From: Gemmatimonadota bacterium
GTDB taxonomy: Bacteria; Gemmatimonadota; Gemmatimonadetes; Palauibacterales; Palauibacteraceae
Direction of reading: 5' to 3'
Assembly (NCBI GenBank): GCA_039584815.1
Contig: JBDGXC010000002.1
Coordinates: forward strand, 89,508-153,507
DNA: 64,000 nucleotides
This document shows positions 6,114 through 41,266 of this stretch, one piece after another. The notes beneath the pieces are model-generated. The model was not told the origin of the DNA and did not search any database. It was given only the letters and a program-made list of their open reading frames with translations. The position numbers and the translations under genes are program-made. How positions within the stretch are numbered: the stretch's first letter is position 1; every line of letters begins with the position of its first letter.

Positions 6114-7232
6114 ATGACCGAATCCCCGAGCTGGTTCGTCGAGGAGCTCGAGAGGCGGGGCGTCTCGCGTCGCGAATTCGTGGGCTTCTGCGGGGTGATG
6201 GCTTCGGTCCTCGCTCTGCCGAGGACGCTGGGCGCGAGAATCGGACAGGCCATCGAGAGCAGCAACAAGCCGACCCTGGTCTGGCTGGAGTTCCAGGACT
6301 GTGCCGGCAATACAGAGTCGTTCCTCAGGGCCGGTCGACCGACGGTGGCCGATATCATCCTGGACACGTTGTCGGTCGACTATCACGAGACGATCATGGC
6401 GGCTGCAGGTCATCAGGCCGAGGAGAACCTGGCAACGGTGGTGGCTGAGAAGCCCGGAGAGTACCTCGCCGTCGTGGAGGGATCGATCCCGACGGGGGCG
6501 AACGGCGCCTATTGTACTGTTGGGGGCCGATCGGCGCTGCAGATGGCGACGGAAGTGTGCAGCGATGCGGCCGCCACCATCGCGATCGGTACGTGTGCCG
6601 CGTTTGGTGGCCTCCCGGCGGCGGCGCCGAATCCCACCGGGGCGCTCAGCGTTTCAGATGCGGTGCCTGGCCTTAGGAACCTCATCAATCTTCCGGCATG
6701 TCCGGCGAACGCCGACAACCTGGCCGCATTGATCGTCTACTACATAACCTTCGGCCGGTGGCCGCCACTGGATGTTTACCGCCGACCCCTGTTCGCGTAC
6801 GGGAAGGCCATCCACGACAACTGCGAGCGCAGAGCCCACTACGATGCCGGGCAATACGTGGAGAACTGGGGTGACGAGGGGCACCGCCTCGGGTACTGCC
6901 TCTACAAGATGGGCTGCAAGGGTCCCGTAACGTTCCAGAACTGCCCGAACGTCGGGTGGAACGAGGGCACGAACTGGCCTGTCGGCTGCGGCCACCCGTG
7001 CCTAGGGTGCGCCGAACCTGACTTCTGGGACAAGATGACGCCGTTCTATAGCCACATCGCAGGTGTGCCTGGTTTCGGAGTCCACGCGAGCGCGGACCGA
7101 GTGGGGCTGTGGCTCACCGCCGGCGTCGCAGCAGCGTACGCTGCGGGAGGACTGATCCAGTACGGCAGACGGCTCGCGCACGATAAGCCAGAGGCGGCCG
7201 CCGTGGAAGAAGAGAAGGGAGGTCTGTCATGA
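6114..7232 (+). CDS. hupS: [NiFe]-hydrogenase small subunit (membrane-bound uptake type, Tat-exported)
   Basis: GGAGG RBS. Twin-arginine motif SRREFVGF. FeS-cluster motifs GTCAAFGG, LPACPAN, HDNCERRAHYD, and CxxxxxxC..GCGHPCLGC. C-terminal TM anchor. Confidence 0.92.
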   Translation: MTESPSWFVEELERRGVSRREFVGFCGVMASVLALPRTLGARIGQAIESSNKPTLVWLEFQDCAGNTESFLRAGRPTVADIILDTLSVDYHETIMAAAGHQAEENLATVVAEKPGEYLAVVEGSIPTGANGAYCTVGGRSALQMATEVCSDAAATIAIGTCAAFGGLPAAAPNPTGALSVSDAVPGLRNLINLPACPANADNLAALIVYYITFGRWPPLDVYRRPLFAYGKAIHDNCERRAHYDAGQYVENWGDEGHRLGYCLYKMGCKGPVTFQNCPNVGWNEGTNWPVGCGHPCLGCAEPDFWDKMTPFYSHIAGVPGFGVHASADRVGLWLTAGVAAAYAAGGLIQYGRRLAHDKPEAAAVEEEKGGLS

Positions 7233-8935
7233 CCCACGTCGTTGTCGATCCGGTCACGCGCATCGAGGGCCACCTGCGGGTCGAAGCGGAGGTCGATGGC
7301 GGCGCAGTACAGGATGCCTGGTCCTCCTCCACGATGTTCCGAGGGGTCGAGATCATCCTCAGAGGCCGGGACCCGAGGGACGCATGGGCCTTCACCCAGC
7401 GGATCTGCGGCGTCTGCACGACAGTTCACTCAATCGCATCGATCCGCGCCGTGGAGAACGCCATCGGCGCCCGCCCGCCGGCGAACGCGCGGCTGCTGCG
7501 CAACCTGATCATGGCCGCACAGATGGTCCAGGACCATGTGGTCCACTTCTACCATCTGCACGCCCTGGATTGGGTGGACGTCGTCTCGGCGCTGTCGGCC
7601 GATCCTGGGGCGACGTCGCGGCTCGCTCAGTCCGTCTCGGACTGGCCGCTCTCCAGCGCGACCTACTTTAGCGGTGTGAGGGAACGGGTACAGCAGTTCG
7701 TCGAGCGTGGTCAACTCGGGCCCTTCGCGAACGCCTACTGGGGCCACCCGGCCTATCGCCTTCCCCCGGAGGCGAACCTGCTTGCCGTAGCGCATTACCT
7801 GGAGGCGCTCGACTGGCAGAGGGATTTCATCAAGATGCACGCGGTGCTGGGGGGAAAGAATCCACACTTGCAGAGCTTCCTGGTCGGAGGCATGGCTACG
7901 CCGGTCGATCCCGACAAGCAGGCTGCGATCAACGTGACCTCGATTTCCACCATGCGGAAGCTGATCCGGGAGGCGCGCGCTTTCGTCGCGAAGGTCTACA
8001 TCCCAGACCTTCTGGCGGTGGCGTCGTTCTACAAGGACTGGGCGGGCTACGGCGCCGGTGTCGGCGACTATCTGGCGTACGGCGAGTTTCCGGAGGGTGA
8101 CGATCCCAACTCTCCCCTCTTCCTCCCCACCGGCCTCATCCGGGACCGGGACCTGTCTGCCGTCGAGCCGATGGATCAGACGAAGATCACCGAGTACGTG
8201 ACCCACTCGTGGTACGAGTACTCGACCGGAGACGGCGAGGGGCTGCATCCGGCAAGTGGAGAGACGAATCCGACCTACACCGGACCGGAGCCGCCCTATG
8301 AGCGTCTGAATACCGACGGCAAGTACAGCTGGCTGAAGTCGCCACGGTATGACGGGCTACCGATGGAGGTCGGTCCACTGTCTCGCATGCTGGTGGCTTA
8401 CGGCTCGGGTCACGCGAGGGTGCAGGAGCTGGTCGGTTACGCCCTGGGAGAGCTGGGTGTCGGACCCGACGCCTTGTTCTCCACGCTTGGCCGAGTCGCG
8501 GCCCGCGGCATCGAGACGCTGGTCCTGGTGGAGAAGATGGAAGACTGGCTGGACGAGCTTGCCGACAACATGGGCCGCGGCCAGCTGGACATTCACGACA
8601 ACACGAAGTGGGATCCGTCCACGTGGCCCAGCGAATGCAGCGGCGCGGGCTTCCACGAAGCCCCTCGCGGTGCCCTCGGCCACTGGGTCCACATCGTGAA
8701 CGGCGAGATTGCCAGTTACCAGTGTGTGGTGCCTAGCACGTGGAACGCGGGACCGCGGGATGCCGCCGGACAGCGCGGACCGTATGAGGAAGCCCTGGTG
8801 GGCACCCCCGTGGCCGATCCCGAGCATCCCCTTGAGATCCTGCGAACCCTGCACTCCTTCGATCCCTGCATGGCGTGCGGTGTCCATGTCGTGGACCGCG
8901 CCGGTCACGAACTGGCAACCGTGAGGCTGCCATGA
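7229..8935 (+). CDS. hupL: [NiFe]-hydrogenase large subunit
   Basis: ATGA overlap with hupS. N-terminal RIEGH and RICGVCTTVHSIAS (L1 motif). C-terminal DPCMACGVHVVD (L2 motif), with a post-His tail consistent with HupD cleavage. Confidence 0.95.
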   Translation: MTHVVVDPVTRIEGHLRVEAEVDGGAVQDAWSSSTMFRGVEIILRGRDPRDAWAFTQRICGVCTTVHSIASIRAVENAIGARPPANARLLRNLIMAAQMVQDHVVHFYHLHALDWVDVVSALSADPGATSRLAQSVSDWPLSSATYFSGVRERVQQFVERGQLGPFANAYWGHPAYRLPPEANLLAVAHYLEALDWQRDFIKMHAVLGGKNPHLQSFLVGGMATPVDPDKQAAINVTSISTMRKLIREARAFVAKVYIPDLLAVASFYKDWAGYGAGVGDYLAYGEFPEGDDPNSPLFLPTGLIRDRDLSAVEPMDQTKITEYVTHSWYEYSTGDGEGLHPASGETNPTYTGPEPPYERLNTDGKYSWLKSPRYDGLPMEVGPLSRMLVAYGSGHARVQELVGYALGELGVGPDALFSTLGRVAARGIETLVLVEKMEDWLDELADNMGRGQLDIHDNTKWDPSTWPSECSGAGFHEAPRGALGHWVHIVNGEIASYQCVVPSTWNAGPRDAAGQRGPYEEALVGTPVADPEHPLEILRTLHSFDPCMACGVHVVDRAGHELATVRLP

Positions 8936-9651
8936 GCGAAGCGACGAGCATGACAGCGGAGCCAGCGCTCGTCAGGGTCTACGTCTGGGATCTGGTCGTC
9001 CGCCTCACCCACTGGCTCCTGGCCCTTTCCATTGTCGTCCTGGCCGTCACCGGGTTCTATATCGGGAACCCCTTCATCGTAGCTCCGGACCCCGCGGGAC
9101 AGACTTTCGTGATGGGTACGGTGCAGGCGATTCACTTCTACGCGGCGGCGGTCTTCAGTCTGTCCGAGCTTTCCAGGATCCTGTGGATGTTTCTGGGAAA
9201 AAGATACGCCCGTTGGAACGAGCTGATACCGACGAGCAGGCATCGGTGGAAACTGGCGTGGGAGTGGATGAAGTTCTACGTTCTCTTTCGCCCGGTCACC
9301 CCGAAGTTCGTGGGCCATAACCCGCTTGCGGGAATCACCTACGTCGTGGTCTATGCGGTCGGCCTCCTGACGGCGCTCACCGGTTACGCCATGTTCTCGG
9401 TATACGCCGGAGCGGGCTCGCCGATGCAGGTCTTCTCGGGCCTCCAGCCGGTCTTCGGCGGGCTCCAGACCGCTCGGTGGATCCATCACGTGTGCATGTG
9501 GGTGTTCGTGTTGTTCGTCATCCACCACGTGTCCTGTGCCCTTCTCGTCGCCCGGGCAGCCAAGAACGCCGCGATCGAGTCGATGTTCTCGGGCTACCGG
9601 TTCGTTCGGGCGGATGACCTGGAGGCGGAGGAGGTGGGAAGAGAAGGATGA
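8932..9651 (+). CDS. hupC: Ni/Fe-hydrogenase b-type cytochrome subunit
   Basis: ATGA overlap with hupL. About four TM helices with conserved His (LTHWLLALSIVVLAVTGFYIGNPF, IHHVCMWVFVLFVIHHV). HyaC/HupC family. Confidence 0.85.
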   Translation: MSEATSMTAEPALVRVYVWDLVVRLTHWLLALSIVVLAVTGFYIGNPFIVAPDPAGQTFVMGTVQAIHFYAAAVFSLSELSRILWMFLGKRYARWNELIPTSRHRWKLAWEWMKFYVLFRPVTPKFVGHNPLAGITYVVVYAVGLLTALTGYAMFSVYAGAGSPMQVFSGLQPVFGGLQTARWIHHVCMWVFVLFVIHHVSCALLVARAAKNAAIESMFSGYRFVRADDLEAEEVGREG

Positions 9652-10217
9652 AAGCGTCGGGCGACTCGGCCTCTCTCCTGGTTCTCGGACTGGGCAACGT
9701 CCTCTGTAGCGACGACGGTCTCGGCGTGGCGGCGGTGGATCTCCTGGTGGGGCGGTACCGGCTACCGGAAAGCGTGCGGGTTATTGACGGCGGGACGCTG
9801 GGTTTGAGTCTGCTCTCCTATATACGTTCCTGCGACGACGTGATCCTCGTAGACGCAATCAGCGACGAGGGCCCACCGGGCACCTTCATTCGACTGGAGG
9901 GGACCGACGTGGCGCCGGCGGTGCGGAACCGCCTCTCCTGTCATCAGATCGGGGTGGCCGATCTATTGAACGCGCTGGACCTCTTGGATGAGGAGCCGCG
10001 GTCACTCACGCTGCTGGGGCTGATCCCGAAGACGCTTGAGCTGGGCCTCGGCCTGTCACCTCCGGTCGAGAACCAGCTTCCCGTGCTGGTGGAGAAGATC
10101 GCGGACGAGGCATACTGCCTGGGCCACCAGCTCCTTCCTCATGCCGGAATGCTGAGCACTGAGCACCAGCACCCATCCCGGGGCTCGCGGCCATGCAGGA
10201 CGCGCTCTGGACCGTGA
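9648..10217 (+). CDS. hupD: hydrogenase maturation protease
   Basis: ATGA overlap. LVLGLGNVLCSDDGLGVAAVD matches the HyaD/HybD endopeptidase signature (GxGNxxxxDDGxG). Confidence 0.85.
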   Translation: MKASGDSASLLVLGLGNVLCSDDGLGVAAVDLLVGRYRLPESVRVIDGGTLGLSLLSYIRSCDDVILVDAISDEGPPGTFIRLEGTDVAPAVRNRLSCHQIGVADLLNALDLLDEEPRSLTLLGLIPKTLELGLGLSPPVENQLPVLVEKIADEAYCLGHQLLPHAGMLSTEHQHPSRGSRPCRTRSGP

Positions 10218-10289: not shown

Positions 10290-10604
10290 CTAGGTATCTG
10301 CCTCGTGGACCCCGCTGCGGCGTTCCTCAAGCCGGAGTAGCGCGTACATGAGCCACTGCGCGGGAAGAGGAATCACGAGCACGAGCACGACAACGGCGAG
10401 CAAGACGAGGAGGGCCACCTTGTATTCCGACGCGAGGGCCGGCTGTCGCAGGGTGTCAGCGATGAACCGGACGGTCCAGACACCTGCGAAGATGGCCCAC
10501 GCGGCGCTGACAAGAATGCCGAGGACCAGAGTCAGTCGAGGTCCCGCGCCCGCCGTCCAAGCCCTGGTAAGCAAGCTGGCGGGCAGCTTCGGAATGAGCC
10601 GCAA
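10290..10604 (-). CDS. small two-TM membrane protein (hypothetical)
   Basis: TTG start, with AAAGGGGA 6 nt upstream. Two predicted hydrophobic helices. No recognisable family. Weak call. Confidence 0.3.
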   Translation of the reverse strand: MRLIPKLPASLLTRAWTAGAGPRLTLVLGILVSAAWAIFAGVWTVRFIADTLRQPALASEYKVALLVLLAVVVLVLVIPLPAQWLMYALLRLEERRSGVHEADT

Positions 10605-10639: not shown

Positions 10640-11122
10640 TTGTCTAACCGTCCCGGGGCCGCCCCCAACACCCGGCGAGAAACTGGTTCGCGTCAGGGCC
10701 GAATGCAAGGTGAAGGAACCGATCTCAGGTGGCTGCCGATCGCAGGGATGCTGATGCTCGGGCTGTGGGCCTGTGACTCTGGAGATCTGCCGCGGGACTA
10801 CCGCGTGCTGGAGGTACCAGGGGCGAGCCTGGCGTCACCGGAAGCCCGAACTCGAGGCCGAGGCCTGTTTCTGGAGCACTGCGCCATCTGCCACGGGGAG
10901 CGGGCAAATGGACGAGGTCGTCGCAGCAACCTGTCGGTGAAGGCGGCTGACTTTACCGATCCCAGGTGGCGCGGGCGAATGAGCCCGAGGCGGGTTTTCT
11001 TCTCCGTACGGGAAGGCGTCGGGGGAACGCCGATGCCAGCATGGAGATTCTTCACTACTGACCAGGTCTGGGATCTGGTTGCATACGTGCTCTCGGTGGC
11101 CGAGTTGGGGCCGGGGACTTGA
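10640..11122 (+). CDS. class I c-type cytochrome, probable lipoprotein
   Basis: Single CAICHG haem-binding motif. Distal GTPMPAW Met-ligand motif. N-terminal hydrophobic segment ending ..LGLWAC. The exact start is uncertain (10640, 10700 or 10730). Confidence 0.7.
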   Translation: MSNRPGAAPNTRRETGSRQGRMQGEGTDLRWLPIAGMLMLGLWACDSGDLPRDYRVLEVPGASLASPEARTRGRGLFLEHCAICHGERANGRGRRSNLSVKAADFTDPRWRGRMSPRRVFFSVREGVGGTPMPAWRFFTTDQVWDLVAYVLSVAELGPGT

Positions 11123-11131
11123 GAGAGTCCA

Positions 11132-11389
11132 GTGCATGAGCTCAGCATAGCGCTGGATGTCTGCCGCATCACCGAGGAGCACGTCGGGCCGGACGCCCTG
11201 GCACGCGTGACGGCCGTCGGACTGGACGTCGGAGATCGGGCGGGCATCGAGATCGACAACCTGGAGTTCTGCCTCGAGGCGCTGCTCGGGAGCCCCCCGT
11301 TCGGAAACGCGGCTCCGAGCATCCGGCGGCTGTCGGGAGACGAGCTGAGGGTGACTTACGTGGAGGTGGAGGACGATGGCAGTCCGTAG
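11132..11389 (+). CDS. hypA: HypA-like hydrogenase nickel-insertion protein, lacking the zinc-finger module
   Basis: N-terminal MHELSIALDV matches the HypA Ni-binding MHE motif. The C terminus (RVTYVEVEDDG) resembles the HypA terminal strand. Only 85 aa, and the CxxC..CxxC motifs are absent. Confidence 0.5.
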   Translation: MHELSIALDVCRITEEHVGPDALARVTAVGLDVGDRAGIEIDNLEFCLEALLGSPPFGNAAPSIRRLSGDELRVTYVEVEDDGSP

Positions 11390-12053
11390 GATCGACGTTC
11401 GCGAAAAGGTGATGGCGAAGAACGACGAGCTGGCCGCGCGGGTCAGACATCGCCTGCACGCCCACGGGGTACCCTCCCTGAACCTCGTGTCGTCGCCCGG
11501 ATCCGGGAAGACGAGCCTGCTCGAACGGACCCTCGACGCGCTCGGCGACACCCTGCGCATGGCCGTGGTGACCGGAGACGTGCAGACTCAGAACGACGCC
11601 GACCGTCTCGCCGTGCGTACCGACCGTCTCGTGCAGGCGGTGGTCACCGGGGGAGCGTGCCACATGGACGCCCGCCAGATAGCCACCGCGCTCGACAAGA
11701 TCGATCTCGGCGACACCGACCTCCTGTTCGTCGAGAACGTCGGGAACCTCGTGTGCCCGGCCTCGTGGGATCTGGGGGAGAACGCCAAAGTCGTGATCTT
11801 CTCGGTGACCGAGGGAGAGGACAAGCCGCTCAAGTATCCCCGCATGTTCGAGCGCTCGGACTACTGCGTGATCAACAAGATCGACCTGCTGCCCTACCTG
11901 CCGTTCGCGATGGATCGTGCCGTGGACTACGCACGCGAGGTGAATCCCGCTCTGCGGTTCTTCCACACGTCCGCCCTCACCGGCGAGGGGATGATGGAGT
12001 GGTACGACTTCCTTGCCGATCTGGCCTGTCGGGAGGCGGAGTCGCCGGCTTGA
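11376..12053 (+). CDS. hypB: hydrogenase nickel incorporation GTPase HypB
   Basis: RIDVREKVMAKND, P-loop SSPGSGKTSLLE, metal-site CH..C, and the NKIDL motif. Overlaps hypA by 14 nt. Confidence 0.9.
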   Translation: MAVRRIDVREKVMAKNDELAARVRHRLHAHGVPSLNLVSSPGSGKTSLLERTLDALGDTLRMAVVTGDVQTQNDADRLAVRTDRLVQAVVTGGACHMDARQIATALDKIDLGDTDLLFVENVGNLVCPASWDLGENAKVVIFSVTEGEDKPLKYPRMFERSDYCVINKIDLLPYLPFAMDRAVDYAREVNPALRFFHTSALTGEGMMEWYDFLADLACREAESPA

Positions 12054-14464
12054 GCCGGGAAGTCCCGCTCTCCCGGCGATCCGCTCCGGACTCGCACTCA
12101 TACTCCGAGGGGATCGAAGCACGTCGCCTTCTGGTGACGGGTGTTGTGCAAGGCGTCGGGTTTCGGCCCTTCGTGCACCGCCTCGCGGGTCGGCACGAAT
12201 TGTCGGGCTGGGTCCGCAACGAGTCCGGTCGAGTGTTCATCGAGGTGGAGGGCGCGGCGACCGCGCTCGACGCCTTCACGGAAGCCCTGCGGAGCGAGGC
12301 GCCCGTGCTCGCTCGCCTGGACGAGGTAACCGTGGAGCGGGTGACGGCTCGCGGTGCAGAGGGGTTTCGCGTTCTGGAGAGCCGGGTGTCCCCGGGACGT
12401 CTGCCGGTGTCTCCGGATGTGTCCGTCTGCGAGGCCTGCAGGTCGGAGCTGTTCACGCCCACCGACCGCCGATACCGTTATCCCTTCATCACGTGCACCG
12501 ACTGCGGACCCCGCTACACGGTGATCGAATCCATGCCGTACGATCGGGAGCGCACCAGCATGCGCGCCTTTCCCCAGTGTCCTGCGTGCGAGCGCGAGTA
12601 CGGCGACCCGGCGGAACGCCGCTTTCACTCGGAGACGAACAGCTGCCCCGAATGCGGGCCGCGGGTGTGGGTAGCGGGACCGGACGGCGTGCCGATCGCA
12701 TCTGGCGACGAAGCTCTCACAGTCGCCGCGCGCCACCTGGAGGTGGACGCCGTGCTGGCGATTCGCGGGCTGGGTGGATACCACCTGGCCTGCGATGCCA
12801 CGAGCGATGCCGCGGTGAGCCGGCTGCGGTCTCGCAAGACGCGCGAGGGGAAGCCCCTGGCCGTGATGACGTTCGACCTGGCGGGAGCTCGGAGTCTCGG
12901 TCACGTCGGCGAGGTGGAGGAGAAGGCGCTGCTGGATCCGGCGCACCCGATCGTCCTGCTCCGCCGGCGAGCCGACAGCGCTCTGGCTCCGTCGGTGTCT
13001 CCGGGTCTCGATACCGTGGGCGTGATGCTGGCGTACACGCCGCTTCATCTGCTGCTACTCGAGCGCGTCGGCCGCCCCCTCGTGATGACCAGCGGCAACG
13101 TCAGCGACCTTCCCATCTGCACGTCGAACCGGGAAGCCGAGCGGAAGCTGTCCGGCGTGGCGAGCGCCTTCCTGATGCACGACCGCGAGATCGTGTCACG
13201 GTATGATGACTCGGTGGTCCGCGTGATCAGGGGCGCCCCCGTGTTTCTCCGCCGTGCAAGGGGATACGCGCCGTTGCCGGTGCCCCTTCCGGTTCCCACA
13301 CCCGAGCCCCTGCTCGCTGTGGGACCTCACCTGAAGAACACGTTCACGCTGGCGGCCGGGACCAGCGCGTTCGTGAGCCAGCATGTAGGGGACCTGGAGA
13401 ACGTCGAGACGCTCGATCATTTCCGTGACTCCCTCGTGCGGTTCAAGGGCCTGTTCCGGATCGAGCCGGTGGTCGTGGCCCGCGATCGCCACCCCGGGTA
13501 CCTGTCCAGCAGAATCGCGGAAGAGCTGGGGCTGGCCAGGGTCGTGGACGTCCAGCATCACCACGCACACGTGGCGGCGGTAGCGGCCGAGCACGGGATC
13601 ACACAGCCAGTGGTGGGTGTGGCGTACGACGGGACCGGTTACGGCGACGACGGCCACACATGGGGCGCCGAGATCCTGGTCGCGGACCTGGCGAATTATC
13701 GTCGCGTGGCTCAGCTGCGATACGCGCCGATGCCGGGCGGCGACCTGGCGGCGCGGCGACCGTGGCGCGCCGCTGCGGGCTACCGTTCACTGGATCGCCA
13801 TCATGCCGATGCCTTCGCCGGGGCGCTCAGCGAAGTCCCGGAGAGCGAACTGAGCGTGGTAGAGGCGCAGATCGAACGACGGGTCAACGCACCGCTGGCC
13901 TCGTCCATGGGCCGGCTGTTCGATGCGGCCGCCGCCATCCTGGGGATCCGGGGCGTTGCCACGTACGAGGGCCAGGCGGCGATGGAGCTCGAAGCGCTGG
14001 CCTCCGTCTCCGTGGTGGAGGGCTCCGTCTTGCGTGGCGACCCGTCCGATCTGGTAACGCGACGGGACGCGGCGGCGGACCGCTTCCCGGTGCTCGAGTT
14101 TCCGTTCTCGGAGGCGTCGGGGGAGGTGTGGGTGATGGATCCCGTCCCCCTCCTCGTGGAGCTGGGGGGCCGCGCGACATCGGGCGAGCGGCCGGGTGAT
14201 TTGGCGGCTGCCTTCCACCTCGCGGTGGGCCGCACGACCATTGAGCTGACGCACCGGGCCTGCCGGCGCAGCGGCATCGACCGGGTGGTGCTGGGCGGAG
14301 GCGTCTTCCAGAACGCGCTCCTGTTGGCGATCGTGGAGGCTGGCCTTGTGGATCGCGGCTTGCAGGTGTTCGCGCCCGAGCGCCTCGGACCGAACGATGG
14401 AAGCATCAGCTACGGGCAGGCGGCGGTCGCGGCCGCTTGCCTGGCCGCCGAGCGGGGGAGGTGA
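12050..14464 (+). CDS. hypF: carbamoyltransferase HypF
   Basis: Acylphosphatase domain (VQGVGFRPFV). Two Zn fingers (CEAC..CTDCGPRY; CPAC..CPECGP). YrdC-like and Kae1-like domains. The probable start is a TTG overlapping the hypB stop (TTGA). The upstream part of the listed ORF (11657 onward) overlaps hypB in another frame and is not coding. Confidence 0.88.
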   Translation: MSREVPLSRRSAPDSHSYSEGIEARRLLVTGVVQGVGFRPFVHRLAGRHELSGWVRNESGRVFIEVEGAATALDAFTEALRSEAPVLARLDEVTVERVTARGAEGFRVLESRVSPGRLPVSPDVSVCEACRSELFTPTDRRYRYPFITCTDCGPRYTVIESMPYDRERTSMRAFPQCPACEREYGDPAERRFHSETNSCPECGPRVWVAGPDGVPIASGDEALTVAARHLEVDAVLAIRGLGGYHLACDATSDAAVSRLRSRKTREGKPLAVMTFDLAGARSLGHVGEVEEKALLDPAHPIVLLRRRADSALAPSVSPGLDTVGVMLAYTPLHLLLLERVGRPLVMTSGNVSDLPICTSNREAERKLSGVASAFLMHDREIVSRYDDSVVRVIRGAPVFLRRARGYAPLPVPLPVPTPEPLLAVGPHLKNTFTLAAGTSAFVSQHVGDLENVETLDHFRDSLVRFKGLFRIEPVVVARDRHPGYLSSRIAEELGLARVVDVQHHHAHVAAVAAEHGITQPVVGVAYDGTGYGDDGHTWGAEILVADLANYRRVAQLRYAPMPGGDLAARRPWRAAAGYRSLDRHHADAFAGALSEVPESELSVVEAQIERRVNAPLASSMGRLFDAAAAILGIRGVATYEGQAAMELEALASVSVVEGSVLRGDPSDLVTRRDAAADRFPVLEFPFSEASGEVWVMDPVPLLVELGGRATSGERPGDLAAAFHLAVGRTTIELTHRACRRSGIDRVVLGGGVFQNALLLAIVEAGLVDRGLQVFAPERLGPNDGSISYGQAAVAAACLAAERGR

Positions 14465-14469
14465 CTGCC

Positions 14470-14799
14470 ATGTGTCTCGGGATTCCGGGTAAGGTGACGG
14501 AGGTGTATCCGAACGAGGGCCTGGCCATGGGAATGGTCGACTTCGGCGGCGTGCGTCGCGAGGTTTGCCTGGCCTACGTGGCGGATGAGGTCGACGCGGG
14601 AGACTACGTGGTCGTACACGTCGGGTTCGCCATTTCCAGGGTGGATGAGGAAGAAGCCCGCCGCACGTTCCAGCTGCTCCAGGAGCTCGGGCAGACGGAC
14701 GAGCTCGACTGGATGCGAGAGATGGCCGAGCAGAGCCTCGCCGGCATGGACGACGCCGCGGACGCCAGGGAGGGCGAGAGCGCCGGGGGGACGGCATGA
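14470..14799 (+). CDS. hypC: hydrogenase assembly chaperone HypC/HupF
   Basis: [10 protein letters not shown] terminus (the Cys2 signature). Acidic C-terminal extension. Confidence 0.85.
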
Positions 14800-15908
14800 A
14801 GTATCTGAGCGAGTATCGGGATCCCCAGCTCGCCCGGACACTCGTCGACCGGATCCTCGCAACGGCCAGCCGGCCACGGGTGCTCATGGAGGTGTGCGGC
14901 GGACAGACGCACACGATCGTCCGGCAGGGGCTGCAAGAGCTGCTGCGGGACGCGGTGGAGATGATCCACGGGCCAGGCTGTCCGGTGTGCGTCACGCCAC
15001 TCGAGCAGATCGATCGCGCCCTGCACCTGGCGGCGCGTCCGGAGATCATCTTCACGTCGTTCGGCGACATGCTTCGGGTGCCCGGCAGCGATAGCGATCT
15101 CTTCCAGGTGCGAGCGGCGGGAGGAGACGTCCGCGTGGTGTACTCGCCCCTCGACGCCCTGGCCATCGCGAGGCGCAACCCGGATCGCGAAGTGGTGTTC
15201 TTCGCGGTCGGTTTCGAGACGACGGCGCCCGCCAACGCCATGGCCGTGTGGCAGGCGCGCGAGCTTGGAGTCGGCAATTTCAGCGTGCTCGTGTCTCATG
15301 TGACCGTTCCGCCAGCCATCGAAGCGATCCTCGATTCGCCGGACAACCGTGTAGAGGGCTTCCTGGCGGCGGGCCATGTGTGCACGGTCATGGGGTGGAG
15401 GGAATACGAGCCCCTGGCTGCGCGGTACGGCGTTCCGATCGTCGTCACCGGTTTCGAGCCGGTCGACATCCTCGAAGGGATCTACATGGCGGTGCGGCAG
15501 CTCGAGGAAGGCCGGGCCGAGGTGGAGAACCAGTACGCCCGATCGGTGCGCAGGGAAGGAAACGAGCCCGCGCAGGAGCTGGTGTCGCAGGTCTTTCGGC
15601 TGGTGGATCGGGCGTGGCGCGGAGTCGGCGAGATCCCGGCCAGCGGGCTCGGGTTGCGGGAGGAGTTCACCGCGTTCGACGCCGAGCGAAAGTTCGAGCT
15701 CCAGGACATTCGGGCCACGGAGCCGGAGGACTGCATGGCGGGAGCCGTCCTGCGCGGCCGGATCAAGCCCATCGAGTGTCCGGCGTTCGGCAGCGCGTGC
15801 ACTCCCGAGAGCCCGCTCGGAGCGCCGATGGTGTCATCCGAGGGCGCCTGCGCGGCCTATTACAACTACGCCCGCTTCCAGCTGAAACCGACGGGAGATC
15901 CGGCGTGA
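14796..15908 (+). CDS. hypD: hydrogenase formation protein HypD
   Basis: ATGA overlap. Motifs [13 protein letters not shown], and [11 protein letters not shown]. Confidence 0.9.
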
Positions 15909-17011
15909 CGGACGGCTCTGCCGGGGCACGACCCGGAGCGGCGAGTGAGGGAGTCGCCCGGATCGCCGCCGCGGGGCTGTCCTGCCCGGCGCCCGCCGGA
16001 CCGGCGAGCCGGGTGCTGCTGGGCCACGGCTCAGGCGGGAAGCTGAGCGCGGCTCTGCTCAGGGAACGGTTCCTTCCTCGCTTCGCGAACGACATCCTGT
16101 CGGCGCTCGGCGACGCCGCGATCGTGGACGTGCCGGGCAGCCAGGTCGCCGTGTCGACGGACACGTTCGTCGTCAGCCCGCTGGAGTTTCCCGGGGGTAA
16201 CATCGGGCACCTGGCGGTGCACGGCACGGTCAACGATCTGGCCATGATGGGAGCCTCGCCCCTGTGCCTGGCGGCCGGCTTCATCCTCGAGGAAGGCCTG
16301 CCGTTCGACGTTCTGGACCGGGTGCTCGACGCCATGGCCGACGCCAGCGCGGCCGCCGGCGTTCCCGTAGTCACCGGCGACACCAAGGTGGTGGAACGCG
16401 GCAAGGCGGACGGGATGTTCATCAACACGACAGGCATCGGCCGGCTCGAGGAGCAGTTTCGACCGGCTCCGGACCGGGCTCGCCCGGGGGACGCCGTGAT
16501 CATATCCGGACCCATAGGACGACACGGAATCGCGATCATGGCTGCGCGCGAGGATCTGCGGTTCGAGGTGGAATTGGAGAGCGACACCGCCAACCTCGTT
16601 CCCCTCGTGCGGCTTCTCCACGAAGCCTGTGGGGATTCCGTGCATTGCCTGCGCGATCCGACACGGGGCGGAGTCGCCAGCGCCCTGAACGAGATCGCGG
16701 CCGCCTCGGGAGTCGGAGTGGAACTGGAGGAAGAGGCGCTGCCCGTTCCGGTCCCGGTGCGCGCCGCCTGCGAGGTGCTCGGCCTCGATCCTCTCTACGT
16801 GGCAAACGAAGGCATCCTCGTAGCGATCGTCGATCCCGAGCTGGCCTTGGAGGCGGTGGCGGTCCTGCGGGACCATCCGGGCGGCGCCGGGGCGGCCCGG
16901 ATCGGATTCGTGAGCGGGGACCGTCCCGGGCTGGTATCGCTCCGGACCGGCCTCGGATCCCGTAGGGTCGTGGACATGCTTCCGGGCGATCAGTTGCCGC
17001 GCATCTGTTGA
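15905..17011 (+). CDS. hypE: hydrogenase expression/formation protein HypE
   Basis: GTGA overlap with hypD. AIR-synthase-like fold. The C-terminal ..PRIC Cys is the cyanation site. An alternative GTG at 16013 would give an N terminus of the E. coli type (LLGHGSGGK). Confidence 0.9.
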
Positions 17012-22742: not shown

Positions 22743-22837
22743 AACCTTTGGAGAGCGGGAGAGTTTCAGGGTAACGGGTGGGTGGTCGCGCGCGAAGCGC
22801 GCCCGCCCGTCGAGGTGAAACCGTGGTGAGAGGGCCG

Positions 22838-24505
22838 ATGCGCCTCAGACGTTCCTGGATGATGCCGCTGGCCATCCCGCTGGTCGTTCTGGCCAGCGGC
22901 GGCTGGTTCCTGCAGGAAGACGAGCGAATCGCCGTGTCCGAGGCGTTGCTCGAGACCGTCGTGCAGCACGTGGCCGACGGATTCGTCGAGGAGGTGTCTC
23001 CGCACGAGCTGTACGACATGGCGATCACCGGCCTGCTCGTGAACCTCGGAGATCCTTACGCGGCGTACATCGAGGCGGAGGACCAGACGACCGCCCTGCT
23101 CTCGAACAGCTACGGCGGCGTCGGCATGCGCATTCTGGCCGAAGAGGACGGCATCAGGGTCCTCAGCATCATCCCGAACAGCCCGTCGTCGGAGCTCGAT
23201 CTCCGATCGGACGATCGGATCGTCGCGGTGGACGGGGAACCCACTATGGAGTGGACTCAGTCCGAGGCCGTCGGAGCCCTGAGAGGGCCGCAGGGAGAAC
23301 CCGTAGAGGTCTCGGTTCGCCGTGAGGGCGTCGCGGACATGATCCACGTCACGATCGTGCGGGACAACGTGCACATCGTGGCCGTCGAGTCGCTCGTGCT
23401 GGCGGACGACGTGGGCTACGTGGTTTTGTCCCAATTCAGCCGTCTCGCCCGCAAAGAGCTCCAGATTGCGATCAGCGACCTTCTCGCCCGGGGAGCCCGT
23501 TCCCTGGTGCTCGATCTCCGGTACAATCAGGGGGGCATTCTGCGCGAGGCGGTCGAGATTGCGGACCTGTTCCTTGCCCAGGGGGATATGGTCGTGGACA
23601 CCCGGGCCCGGGATTCGCGCGACAGTTACGCTTTCACGACTCCCGGTCCGGACCACTATCCCGGACTTCCGGTGGTCGTGCTGGTGAACGCCTGGTCGGC
23701 CAGCGCTTCCGAGATCGTGGCGGGCGCGCTTCAAGACCACGATCGGGCGCTGGTCCTGGGTACGCGGACCTTCGGGAAGGGCGTCATGCAGAGCGTGTTT
23801 CCGCTCCCTGGAGGCAACTACCTGCGCCTCACGACCGGCACCTGGTATACGCCTTCCGGCCGTTCGATTCACAGGTCTCGCGGCGAGGGAGACGATACCT
23901 TCGCCCTGGGCTCGGAGGAATTCAATGAGGCGGTCTCGGAGGCGGTGCAACTCGGGATGCGGGCCACCGACGGGTACGTGCGAGGCGCAGGCGGCGAGCC
24001 GGAAGGTGAGGAAGAGGCCCAGTCGTTCAGGACGGCCGGTGGACGAACGGTGTACGGGGGAGGCGGAATCCGGCCGGACGTGGTAGTCAGCCCGGACACC
24101 CTGACAACCACGGAACAGCGGCTTCGACAGGTGCTCCTGGAGGCGGACGTGCCGTTCACGGACCTCGCCTTCCGCTTCGCCGTGCGGTACAGCAGGGCGC
24201 ACCCGGAACTCACTGAAGATTTTACCATCACGCGCGAAATGCGGCAGGAGTTCATCTCGTTTCTCGAGGAACGAACGGGGGCGGAGCTGGACGCGGGCGT
24301 CGTGGACGACGCCGGGGACTTCGTGGACTATCAACTGGGCCGCCAGGTCGCCATCGCCGCGTTCGGCGAGGGAGCGGGATTGCGGCGGGCTATCGAGCGC
24401 AGTCGCCAGGTGCGCGAGGCGGTGCGGCTTCTCGAGGGCGTGGCGACCCCGGAGGAGCTGCTCGCGCAGCGAGCGGCGGAACAGGAAACGGGACCGGAGA
24501 GTTGA
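22838..24505 (+). CDS. S41 family C-terminal processing peptidase (paralogue 1)
   Basis: RBS GAGAGGG. N-terminal TM/signal. PDZ domain. Catalytic GxSASASE Ser and TFGKG Lys. Long C-terminal domain. Confidence 0.85.
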   Translation: MRLRRSWMMPLAIPLVVLASGGWFLQEDERIAVSEALLETVVQHVADGFVEEVSPHELYDMAITGLLVNLGDPYAAYIEAEDQTTALLSNSYGGVGMRILAEEDGIRVLSIIPNSPSSELDLRSDDRIVAVDGEPTMEWTQSEAVGALRGPQGEPVEVSVRREGVADMIHVTIVRDNVHIVAVESLVLADDVGYVVLSQFSRLARKELQIAISDLLARGARSLVLDLRYNQGGILREAVEIADLFLAQGDMVVDTRARDSRDSYAFTTPGPDHYPGLPVVVLVNAWSASASEIVAGALQDHDRALVLGTRTFGKGVMQSVFPLPGGNYLRLTTGTWYTPSGRSIHRSRGEGDDTFALGSEEFNEAVSEAVQLGMRATDGYVRGAGGEPEGEEEAQSFRTAGGRTVYGGGGIRPDVVVSPDTLTTTEQRLRQVLLEADVPFTDLAFRFAVRYSRAHPELTEDFTITREMRQEFISFLEERTGAELDAGVVDDAGDFVDYQLGRQVAIAAFGEGAGLRRAIERSRQVREAVRLLEGVATPEELLAQRAAEQETGPES

Positions 24506-24512
24506 TCCAGAC

Positions 24513-26213
24513 ATGACGAAGATGAACAGGTCTTGGGTGCCGGCGGTGGTGGTGACGGTCATGGCGCTGGGCGCGGGTGGCTGGCTGCTTCAGCGGGGTG
24601 CGAGCGCCCAGGAGAGCACGGTGTTCAAGGCCCGCCTCTTCGAAGAGGTGCATCGGCTGATCTCAGAGCGGTACGTGGAGGAGATGGAGGCGTCCGATCT
24701 GTATCGGATGGCCATCGACGGCATGCTCCAGGAGCTCGGAGATCCATACTCCGTGTTCATCGACGTCGACCAGACAGAGGACCTCGAGCTTTCGATCGAG
24801 GGAGATTACGGCGGTCTGGGCATCCGGATCCAGAAGGTGGGTGAGTGGATTACGGTCATGGGAGTGCTTCCCAACACGCCGGCGGAGCGCCAGGGACTCC
24901 TGACCGGGGACCGCATTCTGGGTGTCGAGGGAGAATCGGCGCACGACTGGGACGACCAGGAGGCCGTTGAGAGGCTGCGTGGTCCGAAGGGAAGCCCCGT
25001 CACGATCACGGTCGGGCGTGTCGGGGCAGGCGAGCCCATCGAGTTCACGATCGTGCGCGATGAGATCCACGTACAGACGGTGAAGGCGTTCATGGTGGAT
25101 GACCGGATCGGCTTCGTCGATCTCGACGGGTTCAGTCGTGACGCCCGAGAGGAGCTCCGCGCGGCCGTGGACGATCTGTTGTCGCGCGGCGCCGAGGCGC
25201 TCATTCTGGATCTACGATGGAATCCGGGCGGCCTGCTCGACCAGGGAGTCGCCGTATCGGACCTGTTTCTGGAACCCGGTGCGGACATCGTGGAGACCCG
25301 CTCGCGGCTCGAAGATCAGAACTACACGTTCCGGGCCCCCTCGGACGACGTGTTTCCCGGGCTGCCCGTCGTGGTCCTCGTGAATACGGCGAGCGCGAGC
25401 GCATCGGAGATCCTCGCCGGTGCTCTGCAGGACCACGACCGTGCGGTGATCCTGGGCATCCCCACCTTCGGCAAGGGATCCGTACAGACAGTCTATTCCC
25501 TGCCGGGCGGGAACCACCTGAAGCTGACTACGGCGGGGTGGTATACGCCCAGCGGACGTTCCATCACACGTAAGATGGGTCGTGACGACTCGGTGGAGGA
25601 CCTGGTGCTCGCGGTTACCACGCATGCCGATGCGGCTCGGGGAGTGATCGCGGACACGGCCGGCAAGGAAGTCTTCTACACGGCCGCCGGTCGGTCGGTG
25701 TACGGCGGTGGCGGGATCACTCCCGATCTCATCGTTCCGGATACCACGACGCTCGACGAGCGTGAGTTCGCGCGCGCGGTGGCTGCCGGGGGATTCTCAC
25801 TGAATCAGCTGGCCTTCCGGTTCGGCGTCGAGTACACGAGCCAGCACCCCGACCTCGAGCCCGATTTCGTGGTAACCGAAGAAATGCGGGAGGCGTTTCT
25901 GCTCATGCTGTCCGGAGAGGACGGTCTGGACCTGGATCCCGAGCTCACGGAACGGATCGGCATCCACGTCGATCGCTACATCGAGGCGCAGATCGCCAAC
26001 TCCGCGTTCGGCGAGACCGAGATGGTGCGGCGTTTCGAGTCCTACAGCCCGATGTTCCAGGAAGCCGTGCGTCTCCTTTCCGAGGCGCACACGCCCTCCG
26101 ATCTGCTCAGCCTGGCCACGGCCGACAGCCGCCGCGAATCGATCGCGGGCGAGAAGGGTCCGACCGCCGCCGTGGCGACAACCGGGGAAGACTCGGGAGA
26201 CGACGGCTCGTAG
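24513..26213 (+). CDS. S41 family C-terminal processing peptidase (paralogue 2)
   Basis: Same architecture and motifs as paralogue 1 (SASASEILAGALQDHDRAV, TFGKG). Starts 8 nt after the upstream stop. Confidence 0.85.
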   Translation: MTKMNRSWVPAVVVTVMALGAGGWLLQRGASAQESTVFKARLFEEVHRLISERYVEEMEASDLYRMAIDGMLQELGDPYSVFIDVDQTEDLELSIEGDYGGLGIRIQKVGEWITVMGVLPNTPAERQGLLTGDRILGVEGESAHDWDDQEAVERLRGPKGSPVTITVGRVGAGEPIEFTIVRDEIHVQTVKAFMVDDRIGFVDLDGFSRDAREELRAAVDDLLSRGAEALILDLRWNPGGLLDQGVAVSDLFLEPGADIVETRSRLEDQNYTFRAPSDDVFPGLPVVVLVNTASASASEILAGALQDHDRAVILGIPTFGKGSVQTVYSLPGGNHLKLTTAGWYTPSGRSITRKMGRDDSVEDLVLAVTTHADAARGVIADTAGKEVFYTAAGRSVYGGGGITPDLIVPDTTTLDEREFARAVAAGGFSLNQLAFRFGVEYTSQHPDLEPDFVVTEEMREAFLLMLSGEDGLDLDPELTERIGIHVDRYIEAQIANSAFGETEMVRRFESYSPMFQEAVRLLSEAHTPSDLLSLATADSRRESIAGEKGPTAAVATTGEDSGDDGS

Positions 26214-34718: not shown

Positions 34719-35252
34719 ATGCATGGTATCGACGAGGAGCGCCCGGCCCCCGGCGAGTACGACCCGTTCTATCAGGGGTACATCGACCGGGTTCCCGAAG
34801 GATCGATCATGGAAGCGCTCGAGGAGCAGCGATACGAGATCATGGGCTTCCTGGGAAGCCTCGATAACGCAACCGCTGCCCACCGCTACGAGCCAGGGAA
34901 GTGGAGCGTCAAGGAAGTGCTCGGGCACCTGCTGGACACCGAGAGAATCTTTGCCACCCGGGCGCTGTGCTTTGCCCGCGGTGAAGATAAACCGCTCCCC
35001 GGTTTCGAGCAGGACGACTATGTCGACCAGGGGGAATTCGACCGGCGGTCGCTGGCCAGCCTGTCCCACGAATTCGAAGCCGTGCGCCAGTCGACCGAGC
35101 GCCTGTTCGGAAGCCTCGGCGACGGTCATTGGAAGCGCTCCGGGGTGGCCAACGAAGCCCGGACGTCGGTTCGAGCGGTCGCCTACATCGTCGTCGGTCA
35201 TGCCGCCCACCACATGGCGGTGATCCGTGAACGTTACCTGGGCGATCACTGA
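34719..35252 (+). CDS. DinB/YfiT-like (DinB_2) putative metalloenzyme
   Basis: Four-helix bundle family pattern with conserved His residues (LGHLLDTERIF, GHAAHHMAV). Confidence 0.55.
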   Translation: MHGIDEERPAPGEYDPFYQGYIDRVPEGSIMEALEEQRYEIMGFLGSLDNATAAHRYEPGKWSVKEVLGHLLDTERIFATRALCFARGEDKPLPGFEQDDYVDQGEFDRRSLASLSHEFEAVRQSTERLFGSLGDGHWKRSGVANEARTSVRAVAYIVVGHAAHHMAVIRERYLGDH

Positions 35253-35298
35253 CGAGGGGAGGGGTCTCCCGCGCGGCAGACCCCCCGCGGGAGGTAGC

Positions 35299-36534
35299 AT
35301 GAGCCCCTCGCTCACCCTCGAGGGGTGGACGTGGAAGCGAGCGGGCAGCCTGGCCGCCGGACTCGCAATGATCGTGGCGTCCTGGATGACGATCCAGCAC
35401 TTCTTCGCCGCGAATTATCCCGAGTCGATCTGGGAAGGCTCGTTCTGTGACATCTCCTCCTTCTTCAACTGCGACAGCTCCGCGTTCTCGCGGATTTCCG
35501 CGGTCGGCGGTACGCCCATCGGCGTGTTCGGGGCCATGCTGGGCGGACTGGTGGCGTTCGGCGCGGTGTTCCCGTCTGCCGGTCTGGAGCGCACGAACAA
35601 GACCCTCGCTCTGCTGAACGGGCTTGGCGTCGTGGCGCTGCTCTTCTACTCGGTGGGTATCCTCGGAAGTCTGTGTCTGCTGTGTACCGGCTACTACGTG
35701 TTCTCGGGCGCCAGCCTCGTCCTGTTCTGGCGATACGGGATCGATCGCGACGCCGGGACGGCGAGTGTCCGCTGGCTCCGCCCCAGGGCGAGCGTTCTGG
35801 TGGTCGCGGCCATCGTGACGATGTCCCAGGCCTGGGTAGCCGCGCAGTACCACGAGGCGAGGCGCGACGCACAGAGCGGGGGCGTCGCCGAGCGCATCGT
35901 ACGTCAGTTCCACGGTCTCCCACGCGTCCCGTGGCCCAGTGAGATCTCGCCCTTCCGTACAGCGTCTGCCTACCCGGTGTTCGAGGACGCCCCCATCCGG
36001 ATCGTCGAGTACGCGGACCTGCTGTGCTCGGACTGCCTCTATCTCAACGAGCAGCTGGTCCGTCTGAAGGAGGAATTCGGCGACCACATGAACGTGGCGT
36101 TCCAGTTCTTTCCGCTCGATGCGTCGTGCAACCAGGTGGTCGAAAAGGACAAGCACCCCGGGGCCTGCGCCCTGTCCTTCATGGCGGCCCACGACCCGGC
36201 CAGGTTCAGAGCCGTCCACGACGAGATTTTCGCCAACTTCGAGGCGGCGAAGGATCCCGACTGGAGAGGAGACCTCGCGCAGCGCCACGGCGTGACGGCG
36301 GCGCTCACGGACTCGACCACTATCGACCGGGTCCTTCGTCTGATCGCCACCGGAGTCGAGTACGAGAGAACGTCGGACGAGTACTCGCACGGCATCCGCT
36401 CGACACCCACCATGATCATCAACAATCGCATGGTGATCGGTACGTTTCCCTACGAACAGCTGCGGGCGATCTTCCAGGCGCTGGTGGACGAGGCGGACGG
36501 GGAAGGGAAGTTCATGGAGCATTGGGTGGAGTGA
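35299..36534 (+). CDS. vitamin K epoxide reductase (VKOR) domain fused to thioredoxin/DsbA-like domain
   Basis: VKOR loop Cys pair (CDISSFFNC). TM CxxC active site (CLLCTGYY). C-terminal Trx-like domain with CSDC. Confidence 0.7.
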   Translation: MSPSLTLEGWTWKRAGSLAAGLAMIVASWMTIQHFFAANYPESIWEGSFCDISSFFNCDSSAFSRISAVGGTPIGVFGAMLGGLVAFGAVFPSAGLERTNKTLALLNGLGVVALLFYSVGILGSLCLLCTGYYVFSGASLVLFWRYGIDRDAGTASVRWLRPRASVLVVAAIVTMSQAWVAAQYHEARRDAQSGGVAERIVRQFHGLPRVPWPSEISPFRTASAYPVFEDAPIRIVEYADLLCSDCLYLNEQLVRLKEEFGDHMNVAFQFFPLDASCNQVVEKDKHPGACALSFMAAHDPARFRAVHDEIFANFEAAKDPDWRGDLAQRHGVTAALTDSTTIDRVLRLIATGVEYERTSDEYSHGIRSTPTMIINNRMVIGTFPYEQLRAIFQALVDEADGEGKFMEHWVE

Positions 36535-40921: not shown

Positions 40922-41266
40922 ATGAAGGTGTTCGCGCCCGTCATGATCGGCCTGAGTTTTCTCCTCCTGGCAGCCCACTTCAGCCGGGCCGGGATGGAGA
41001 CGCTGGTATGGGCCAGTCTGGGGATGCCCTTCCTTCTGGCGGTCCGGCGGCCATGGTCCGGGTGGGTGCTTCGCGTGGCGCTCGCCCTCGGAGGAATCGA
41101 ATGGCTGCGGACGCTGTGGCGACTGGTGGCGGAGCGACGCGTGGCGGGCGAGCCGTGGGGTCGGCTCGCCTCGATTCTAGCGGCGGTGGCCCTCGTGACC
41201 TTCGTCGCGGCGTGGCTCGCCGGCCGCCACGGCCCTCGTCAGGTCGCGCCGGTAAAGCGGTCCTAG
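40922..41266 (+). CDS. small membrane protein (hypothetical)
   Basis: 114 aa with three or four hydrophobic helices. No RBS. Weak call. Confidence 0.3.
   Translation: MKVFAPVMIGLSFLLLAAHFSRAGMETLVWASLGMPFLLAVRRPWSGWVLRVALALGGIEWLRTLWRLVAERRVAGEPWGRLASILAAVALVTFVAAWLAGRHGPRQVAPVKRS

Follow-up and report, generated by a model that had tools for sequence, protein, structure and literature searches.

A conserved HypA family without the zinc ribbon in uptake-hydrogenase operons of Gemmatimonadota

The DNA analysed here (hereafter the window) is a stretch of 64,000 nucleotides from a Gemmatimonadota bacterium, a member of a phylum abundant in soils and sediments (assembly GCA_039584815.1, contig JBDGXC010000002.1, positions 89,508-153,507 of the forward strand). 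Its plus strand carries a complete uptake-hydrogenase locus with the layout hyaABCD-hypABFCDE, in which hypA (11132..11389, plus strand; PF01155) encodes a protein of 85 amino acids (aa) that has the nickel-binding domain only and lacks the zinc ribbon. The sequence, the predicted fold, the conservation, the selection acting on the gene and its synteny lead us to consider it likely that this protein is a working HypA, minimised in nature, that operates with an ordinary type I HypB, and that this lineage can dispense with the ribbon. The observation concerning HypA is real, and the short form is conserved; in full-text literature searches we found no description of a HypA lacking zinc, although the coverage of these searches is thin for subscription papers and an earlier mention is possible.

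The 85-aa protein opens with the codons GTG-CAT-GAG, translated as M-H-E. Homologue alignment and the upstream stop placed the nickel-binding motif M1-H2-E3 (11132..11140, plus strand) at the exact N-terminus, and the start is fixed there because an in-frame TGA (11120-11122) lies three codons upstream. Against the Pfam HypA family PF01155 the protein scored 39.2 bits (cut-off 28.9), the match covering positions 1-60 of the 112 in the profile only. Neither the protein nor any of the three forward frames of positions 11101-11420 contains a CxxC motif, and therefore a frameshift cannot restore the zinc module; this scenario, one of those that a preliminary description of the same DNA had named as refuting its interpretation, was excluded. 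A single-sequence search of PDB was uninformative, and a family profile was required for the structural alignment of HypA. With this profile, residues 1-44 aligned without gaps to the Helicobacter pylori chains 6g81 and 2kdx, placing E40 (11249..11251, plus strand) at the position of the nickel ligand Asp40 of H. pylori HypA, and the C-terminal strand GDELRVTYVE aligned to H. pylori GNEMRLLSLE. The preliminary description had claimed an MHE start, a HypA-like terminal strand and the absence of Cys pairs from every frame before hypB, and our results agree with it on each of these points.

The AlphaFold2 model obtained with the family alignment had a predicted local distance difference test (pLDDT) score of 94.1 and a predicted template modelling (pTM) score of 0.83, and it comprises, in this order, a helix (residues 2-25), a strand (26-34), a second helix (41-52) and two further strands (61-67 and 72-79). 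In a Foldseek search the first 14 matches were all HypA chains (TMq up to 0.82) whose alignments gap out the zinc domain, and the model superposed on HypA over 81 of its 85 residues. Canonical HypA/HybF proteins (PF01155; 3A43 from Thermococcus kodakarensis, 6G81 and 2KDX from H. pylori) have 110-140 aa and contain a ribbon of about 33 residues with the pattern CxxC-Xn-CxxC, whereas the short form has a tight beta-turn in its place. Aligned to canonical HypAs, it differs by a single clean gap of that length (...PG / ribbon / G-x-E-L-x-V...), at which the turn S68-G69-D70-E71, part of the hairpin L67-S68-G69-D70-E71-L72 (11330..11347, plus strand), joins the two C-terminal strands 61-67 and 72-79, as judged from the secondary structure of the model and from the alignments. 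Since the model and the Foldseek matches correspond to HypA with the zinc domain gapped out, the short protein is predicted to represent the entire HypA nickel domain in its alpha/beta fold. It retains M1-H2-E3 and E40, the counterpart of the Asp40 ligand; the model shows two helices and a sheet of three strands, and the zinc ribbon has been lost.

A protein 25-35 residues shorter than canonical HypA, scoring below all NCBIfam cut-offs, could in principle be the product of a pseudogene, a truncated hypA remnant or an artefact of gene calling or frameshifting. Besides the missing CxxC in all frames, the retained C-terminal strand and the complete predicted fold, the conservation of the protein speaks against such an origin, which we regard as effectively refuted. 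A search of 5.8 billion proteins matched 152 clusters, almost all of them 81-89 aa long, so that more than 150 clusters share the same length, and CxxC was absent from all 120 homologues inspected. In a 71-member alignment the residues H2, E3, S5, A7, C11, V33, G34, F46, C47, L48, P56, F57 and E78 were invariant, and M1, E40, G69, L72, R73 and Y76 were conserved in at least 90% of the sequences; the start codon of the relatives, be it ATG, GTG or TTG, always directly precedes the HE codons. The identical 85-aa protein is encoded on contigs of at least 8 metagenome-assembled genomes (MAGs) from the population to which the window belongs. The median ratio of nonsynonymous to synonymous substitution rates (dN/dS) was 0.27 (pairwise Nei-Gojobori, 1530 comparisons), being 0.23 for residues 1-55 and 0.34 from residue 56 to the end, where dS is depressed near the 3' end of hypA, as the last codons overlap hypB. 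Thus, the remnant scenario of the preliminary description is contradicted by the conservation of length across the family, by purifying selection, with dN/dS values of about 0.1-0.3, that includes the C-terminal half and by the overlap with hypB.

When one genome per species was scanned, a relative of the short HypA was found in 309 GTDB species. The best 80 of these were Gemmatimonadota/Gemmatimonadales MAGs, except for three labelled "uncultured bacterium" and one MAG labelled Bacteroidetes, and two closed chromosomes were among the 80. Compared with canonical HypAs, the short proteins of Gemmatimonadota have invariant residues of their own, namely C11 (11162-11164) and the loop P55-P56-F57 (11294-11302), which are particular to this family; in other HypAs position 11 is occupied by a hydrophobic residue. 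C11 and C47 (11270-11272) are both invariant in the close family, C47 being part of the general HypA motif F-C-[FL]. We considered whether the two cysteines might form a disulfide or a metal site that takes the place of the lost one, but an obligate pair is unlikely because the residues at these positions change independently of each other (C/W, G/C, G/S, A/C) among the 50%-identity representatives.

The genomic context of the short gene was studied in 88 loci of the Gemmatimonadota family (L001-L088). In 88 of 88 loci hypB directly follows the short hypA, with an overlap of 14 or 20 nucleotides in nearly all of them, hypF-C-D-E usually come next on contigs that are intact and reach far enough, and the genes of the large subunit, cytochrome b and the protease lie directly upstream in most. 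The same architecture in all 88 loci puts the observation far beyond chance. In the window hypA and hypB overlap by 14 nucleotides (11376..11389, plus strand), and GGAGG Shine-Dalgarno sites lie inside the 3' end of hypA, an arrangement indicative of translational coupling. The conserved acidic C-terminus of HypA, V-E-V-E-D-D (window 11340-11389), is encoded by GTGGAGGTGGAGGACGATG. As GTGGAGGTGGAGGACGATG also holds the hypB start codon ATG and the GGAGG Shine-Dalgarno sites, the conservation of the 3' end of hypA may in part reflect translational coupling and not the function of HypA.

The short gene could have a canonical partner elsewhere, serving as a hydrogenase-specific paralogue (like HybF of Escherichia coli) for the group 1 enzyme of this locus while a canonical zinc-containing HypA does the general job. 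Paralogues of HypA that confer hydrogenase specificity are known (PMC12134894), and Gemmatimonadota MAGs can carry [NiFe] hydrogenases of several types (PMC11316326). However, a hidden Markov model (HMM) built from 65 canonical HypA representatives with two CxxC motifs gave exactly one match per locus plus one in the window, always the short gene, and hence neither the 64-kb window nor the 10-kb flanks on either side at the 88 loci showed a second hypA. Moreover, the short gene is coupled to the only hypB-hypFCDE set seen, and in another lineage, described below, a short form replaces the canonical one at the same operon position. We therefore regard a division of labour of this kind as unlikely, and even if it existed, the protein without the ribbon would still be a working HypA for this enzyme. 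The nearest canonical relative (cluster P0173/P0294) sits in its own hypA-hypB-hypF operon and is uninformative about co-occurrence with the short form, because that operon belongs to a different assembly. A canonical hypA elsewhere, the other possibility envisaged in the preliminary description, is thus excluded for the window and the flanks searched.

Since domain fission is common, we also considered that a small protein encoded by a gene of its own might provide the zinc ribbon in trans. No support for this was found: among open reading frames (ORFs) of 30-160 aa with the pattern CxxC-X6-30-CxxC in the window and the 88 loci, no conserved small zinc-ribbon protein was detected, and the only recurrent cluster of CxxC ORFs (10 loci) was an out-of-frame ORF inside hypD. 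A split gene is accordingly hardly credible.

Short HypAs were not confined to Gemmatimonadota. When 1.84 billion 50%-identity representatives were searched with a profile, 1524 matches resulted, and among the best 150, which we classified, 68 were canonical and 36 were full-length proteins without the zinc module, 15 of the Gemmatimonadota type and 21 others of 78-89 aa. The latter form small clusters. The zinc-less HypA is therefore no peculiarity of this locus but a family that spans the phylum and has rarer parallels elsewhere. The most informative case is a non-Gemmatimonadota locus (L089) with the layout hyaABCD-hypA(87 aa)-hypB(219 aa)-FCDE, in which the short hypA occupies positions 8001-8264. 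The operon of locus L098 is orthologous to it, with identities of 78% for the small subunit, 88% for the large subunit, 76% for HypB, 86% for HypD and 77% for HypE, and its HypA (8001-8369) is canonical, with 122 aa and two CxxC motifs. Over residues 1-66 the HypA proteins of the two loci share 77% identity, and they are separated by a clean 33-residue indel that corresponds to the zinc ribbon. Further short forms occur in an Anaerospora sp. MAG (L093), with hypA of 80 aa followed by hypB of 220 aa, and in locus L091, where hypFCDE are followed, at 8001-9032, by a zinc-less hypA of 85 aa and a hypB of 251 aa.

Because some of the non-Gemmatimonadota short forms have canonical nearest neighbours (for instance P0174 and P0205, 58% identical), the sequences suggest repeated loss of the zinc ribbon. 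We lean, with less assurance than in the case of the individual protein, towards the view that the ribbon is an accessory module, that group 1 membrane-bound hydrogenases can make do with a HypA consisting of the nickel domain alone, and that several independent losses of the ribbon have taken place: one at the root of a large clade of Gemmatimonadota, one or more in the lineage of L089 and L098, and others in scattered cases. If so, natural near-isogenic pairs such as L089/L098 would isolate the role of the zinc domain, for example in regulation, partner selection or zinc/nickel cross-talk.

The partner gene hypB (11376..12053, plus strand) encodes a 225-aa GTPase-type protein without an N-terminal metal-binding tail, which scored 254.6 bits against TIGR00073 (cut-off 121.2). 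The E. coli-type model PRK10463 (290 aa) aligned to it with 260.9 bits, below the cut-off of that model (385 bits), over model positions 76-288; the G-domain is homologous, and residues 1-75 of the E. coli type, with the high-affinity nickel site CxxCGC, are missing here. An N-terminal extension is ruled out because a TGA (11352-11354) lies seven codons 5' of the ATG. The protein contains neither CxxCGC nor a His-rich stretch, has just 3 His in its first 40 residues, and its G-domain alignment begins at residue 4. The GTPase motifs are present, namely the P-loop G42-S-G-K-T46 (11499..11513, plus strand), ENVGNLVCP at residues 120-128 and NKID at residues 167-170, and so is the G-domain metal site C95-H96...C127 (CH-X30-C; 11658..11756, plus strand). 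Both the tail-less N-terminus and the intact C-H-C site had been reported in the preliminary description, and both were borne out.

A subgroup of HypB proteins with a short, non-metal-binding N-terminus and the motif CHX30-34C is recognised, for example in H. pylori (PMC13202556). The nearest solved chains were 2wsm, 2hf8 and 4lps, and compared with these type I GTPases (Archaeoglobus fulgidus 2WSM, Methanocaldococcus jannaschii 2HF8 and H. pylori 4LPS) the present HypB has the same G3E P-loop, NKID, CH-X30-C and N-terminal hydrophobic-x-hydrophobic HypA-binding peptide; nothing notable differs, CxxCGC and the His-rich region being absent from both. It is thus an ordinary, already known type I (tail-less) GTPase HypB without novelty. 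The phrase "minimal nickel-delivery branch" used in the preliminary description remains a fair summary of the locus, but the tail-less HypB that it included is not unusual. The two features also occur together here without being linked to each other: we rejected such a link, as locus L091 pairs a zinc-less HypA with a fully tailed HypB that carries MCETCGCG and a His-rich N-terminus. Across the 88 loci, intact hypB genes encode 222-230 aa. In L051, L073, L028 and L030 hypB looked fused, split or broken up by runs of N (364-371 or 152-166 aa, compared with the usual ~223 aa); in these long-read or low-coverage MAG loci the odd lengths most likely reflect assembly or frameshift errors and not biology.

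The N-terminal peptide of HypB, M-A-V-R-[RT]-I-[DE]-V-R-E, is conserved across related loci, and its element I-[DE]-[VIL] is kept in almost all of the 88 loci with a readable HypB N-terminus. According to the registers of the alignments to PRK10463 and to the solved chains, I6-D7-V8 (11391..11399, plus strand) is the predicted HypA-binding peptide and corresponds to L78-E79-V80 in E. coli and Y4-E5-L6 in A. fulgidus. Where the G-domain of HypB begins, two hydrophobic residues (Y4/L6 in A. fulgidus, L78/V80 in E. coli) are required for HypA binding and maturation (PMC3287977). The conservation of this peptide is also what would be expected if the short HypA were a mere adaptor for the docking of HypB to the large subunit, its role as a nickel carrier having been lost and nickel coming directly from HypB; for E. 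coli, it has been proposed that HypA acts as a scaffold (PMC7055735). Such an adaptor would leave the N-terminus hard to explain, given that H2 and E3 are invariant, M1 and E40 are conserved in at least 90% of the sequences and the start is always placed so as to yield M-H-E. Therefore, the nickel site formed by the N-terminal amine, His2 and Glu3 is presumably used, and we find the adaptor explanation improbable, more so than a specialised paralogue.

Nickel binding, nickel transfer and hydrogenase maturation are attributed to the short HypA from homology. In H. pylori HypA, Ni(II) is coordinated through the N-terminal amine, through the amides of His2 and Glu3 and through the His2, Glu3 and Asp40 side chains (PMC7055735). 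If the short protein acts as a minimised HypA, HypA and HypB would be translated together through their overlapping genes, and HypA would bind the peptide I6-D7-V8 at the N-terminus of HypB's GTPase domain. It would then take Ni(II) from the C95/H96/C127 site of HypB after GTP hydrolysis and pass it to the large subunit loaded with Fe(CN)2CO, whereupon the endopeptidase encoded in the operon would cut off the 15-residue C-terminal extension of that subunit. The zinc ribbon would be dispensable for all these contacts in this lineage.

The role of the HypA zinc domain has been debated for about 15 years, the proposals including a structural function, the sensing of pH or nickel, and partner selection. 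Current reviews and the primary literature of 2026 present HypA as a two-metal protein with a structural zinc site that interactions with partners require. Reviews state that all HypAs bind zinc (PMC7055735), and the two-domain description of HypA is repeated in a minireview of 2025 (PMC12134894) and in a Journal of Biological Chemistry paper of 2026 (PMC13202556). Several points weigh against a functional HypA without the ribbon. Mutants of H. pylori in the Cys residues of the zinc site lose hydrogenase and urease activity (PMC7055735), and the 2026 paper calls the zinc site of HypA essential for the interaction with partners (PMC13202556). In T. kodakarensis, His98 from the zinc-domain region completes the high-affinity nickel site (PMC7055735), and its counterpart is missing in the short HypA; that system, however, uses an ATPase-type HypB, whereas the present HypB is of the GTPase type. 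The short protein falls far below the cut-offs of all NCBIfam HypA equivalogs (29.8 bits compared with 88.1 for TIGR00100), and its fold is known here as a prediction only. Finally, the absence of a second hypA covers the 64-kb window and the 10-kb flanks only, and a canonical paralogue elsewhere in the genome is possible.

The short family is at variance with the textbook view, according to which no HypA lacks a zinc site. A large natural family that is under purifying selection without the ribbon, together with orthologous operons that differ only in the ribbon, implies that core nickel delivery probably needs just the nickel domain of about 80 residues. Experimenters thereby gain a minimal chaperone and matched pairs with and without the ribbon for testing the role of the zinc domain. 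The annotation of the family is at odds with its sequence: JGI names these proteins (P0011, P0022, P0026 and others) "Zn finger protein HypA/HybF" although they have no zinc finger, and the NCBIfam HypA equivalogs gave 12-30 bits on the family compared with cut-offs of 88-146. Because pipelines mislabel short HypAs as zinc finger proteins or miss them at the equivalog cut-offs, surveys that require a full-length HypA could mis-score the capacity for hydrogenase maturation in Gemmatimonadota.

The hydrogenase that this maturation set would serve is encoded upstream of hypA on the plus strand. The [NiFe] hydrogenase small subunit (6114..7232; PF01058, PF14720) has a Tat-like SRREFV signal at its N-terminus, and the large subunit (7229..8935; PF00374, 777 bits) is of the group 1 membrane-bound type, its closest solved structure being the membrane-bound enzyme of Allochromatium vinosum (3myr_B, 744 bits), followed by Salmonella Hyd-5 and E. 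coli Hyd-1. Since its C-terminal DPCMACGVH carries a 15-residue extension, the large subunit needs nickel-dependent C-terminal processing. Next come the b-type cytochrome subunit (Ni_hydr_CYTB; 8932..9651), assigned from the gene call and from PF01292 in the identical loci L001-L008, and a nickel-dependent maturation endopeptidase of the HycI/HyaD family (9648..10217; PF01750, 92.7 bits). Downstream of hypB lie hypF (12050..14464; gene call, with PF00708, PF07503, PF01300 and PF17788 in L001), hypC (14470..14799; PF01455), hypD (14796..15908; PF01924) and hypE (15905..17011; PF00586, PF02769), all on the plus strand.

Between the protease gene and hypA, the window contains a predicted membrane ORF of 104 aa without a Pfam family (10290..10604, minus strand) and a c-type cytochrome gene (10640..11122, plus strand; PF13442). 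This insertion is restricted to a subset of the loci (L001-L008, L011, L018, L037, L043, L046 and L064); most loci of Gemmatimonadota have the protease gene immediately next to hypA. The inserted genes may provide an extra electron-transfer partner of this hydrogenase.

Outside the hydrogenase locus the window holds housekeeping genes, and no second hydrogenase, nickel transporter or SlyD-type protein was found among the window ORFs scanned. At 22778-24505 and 24513-26213, two paralogous genes in tandem encode C-terminal processing peptidases of the S41 type that have PDZ and CtpB_N-like domains. Two fusion proteins were also observed, a 435-aa VKOR-DsbA/thioredoxin (35227-36534, plus strand) and a 937-aa transaldolase-phosphoglucose isomerase (41263-44079, minus strand).
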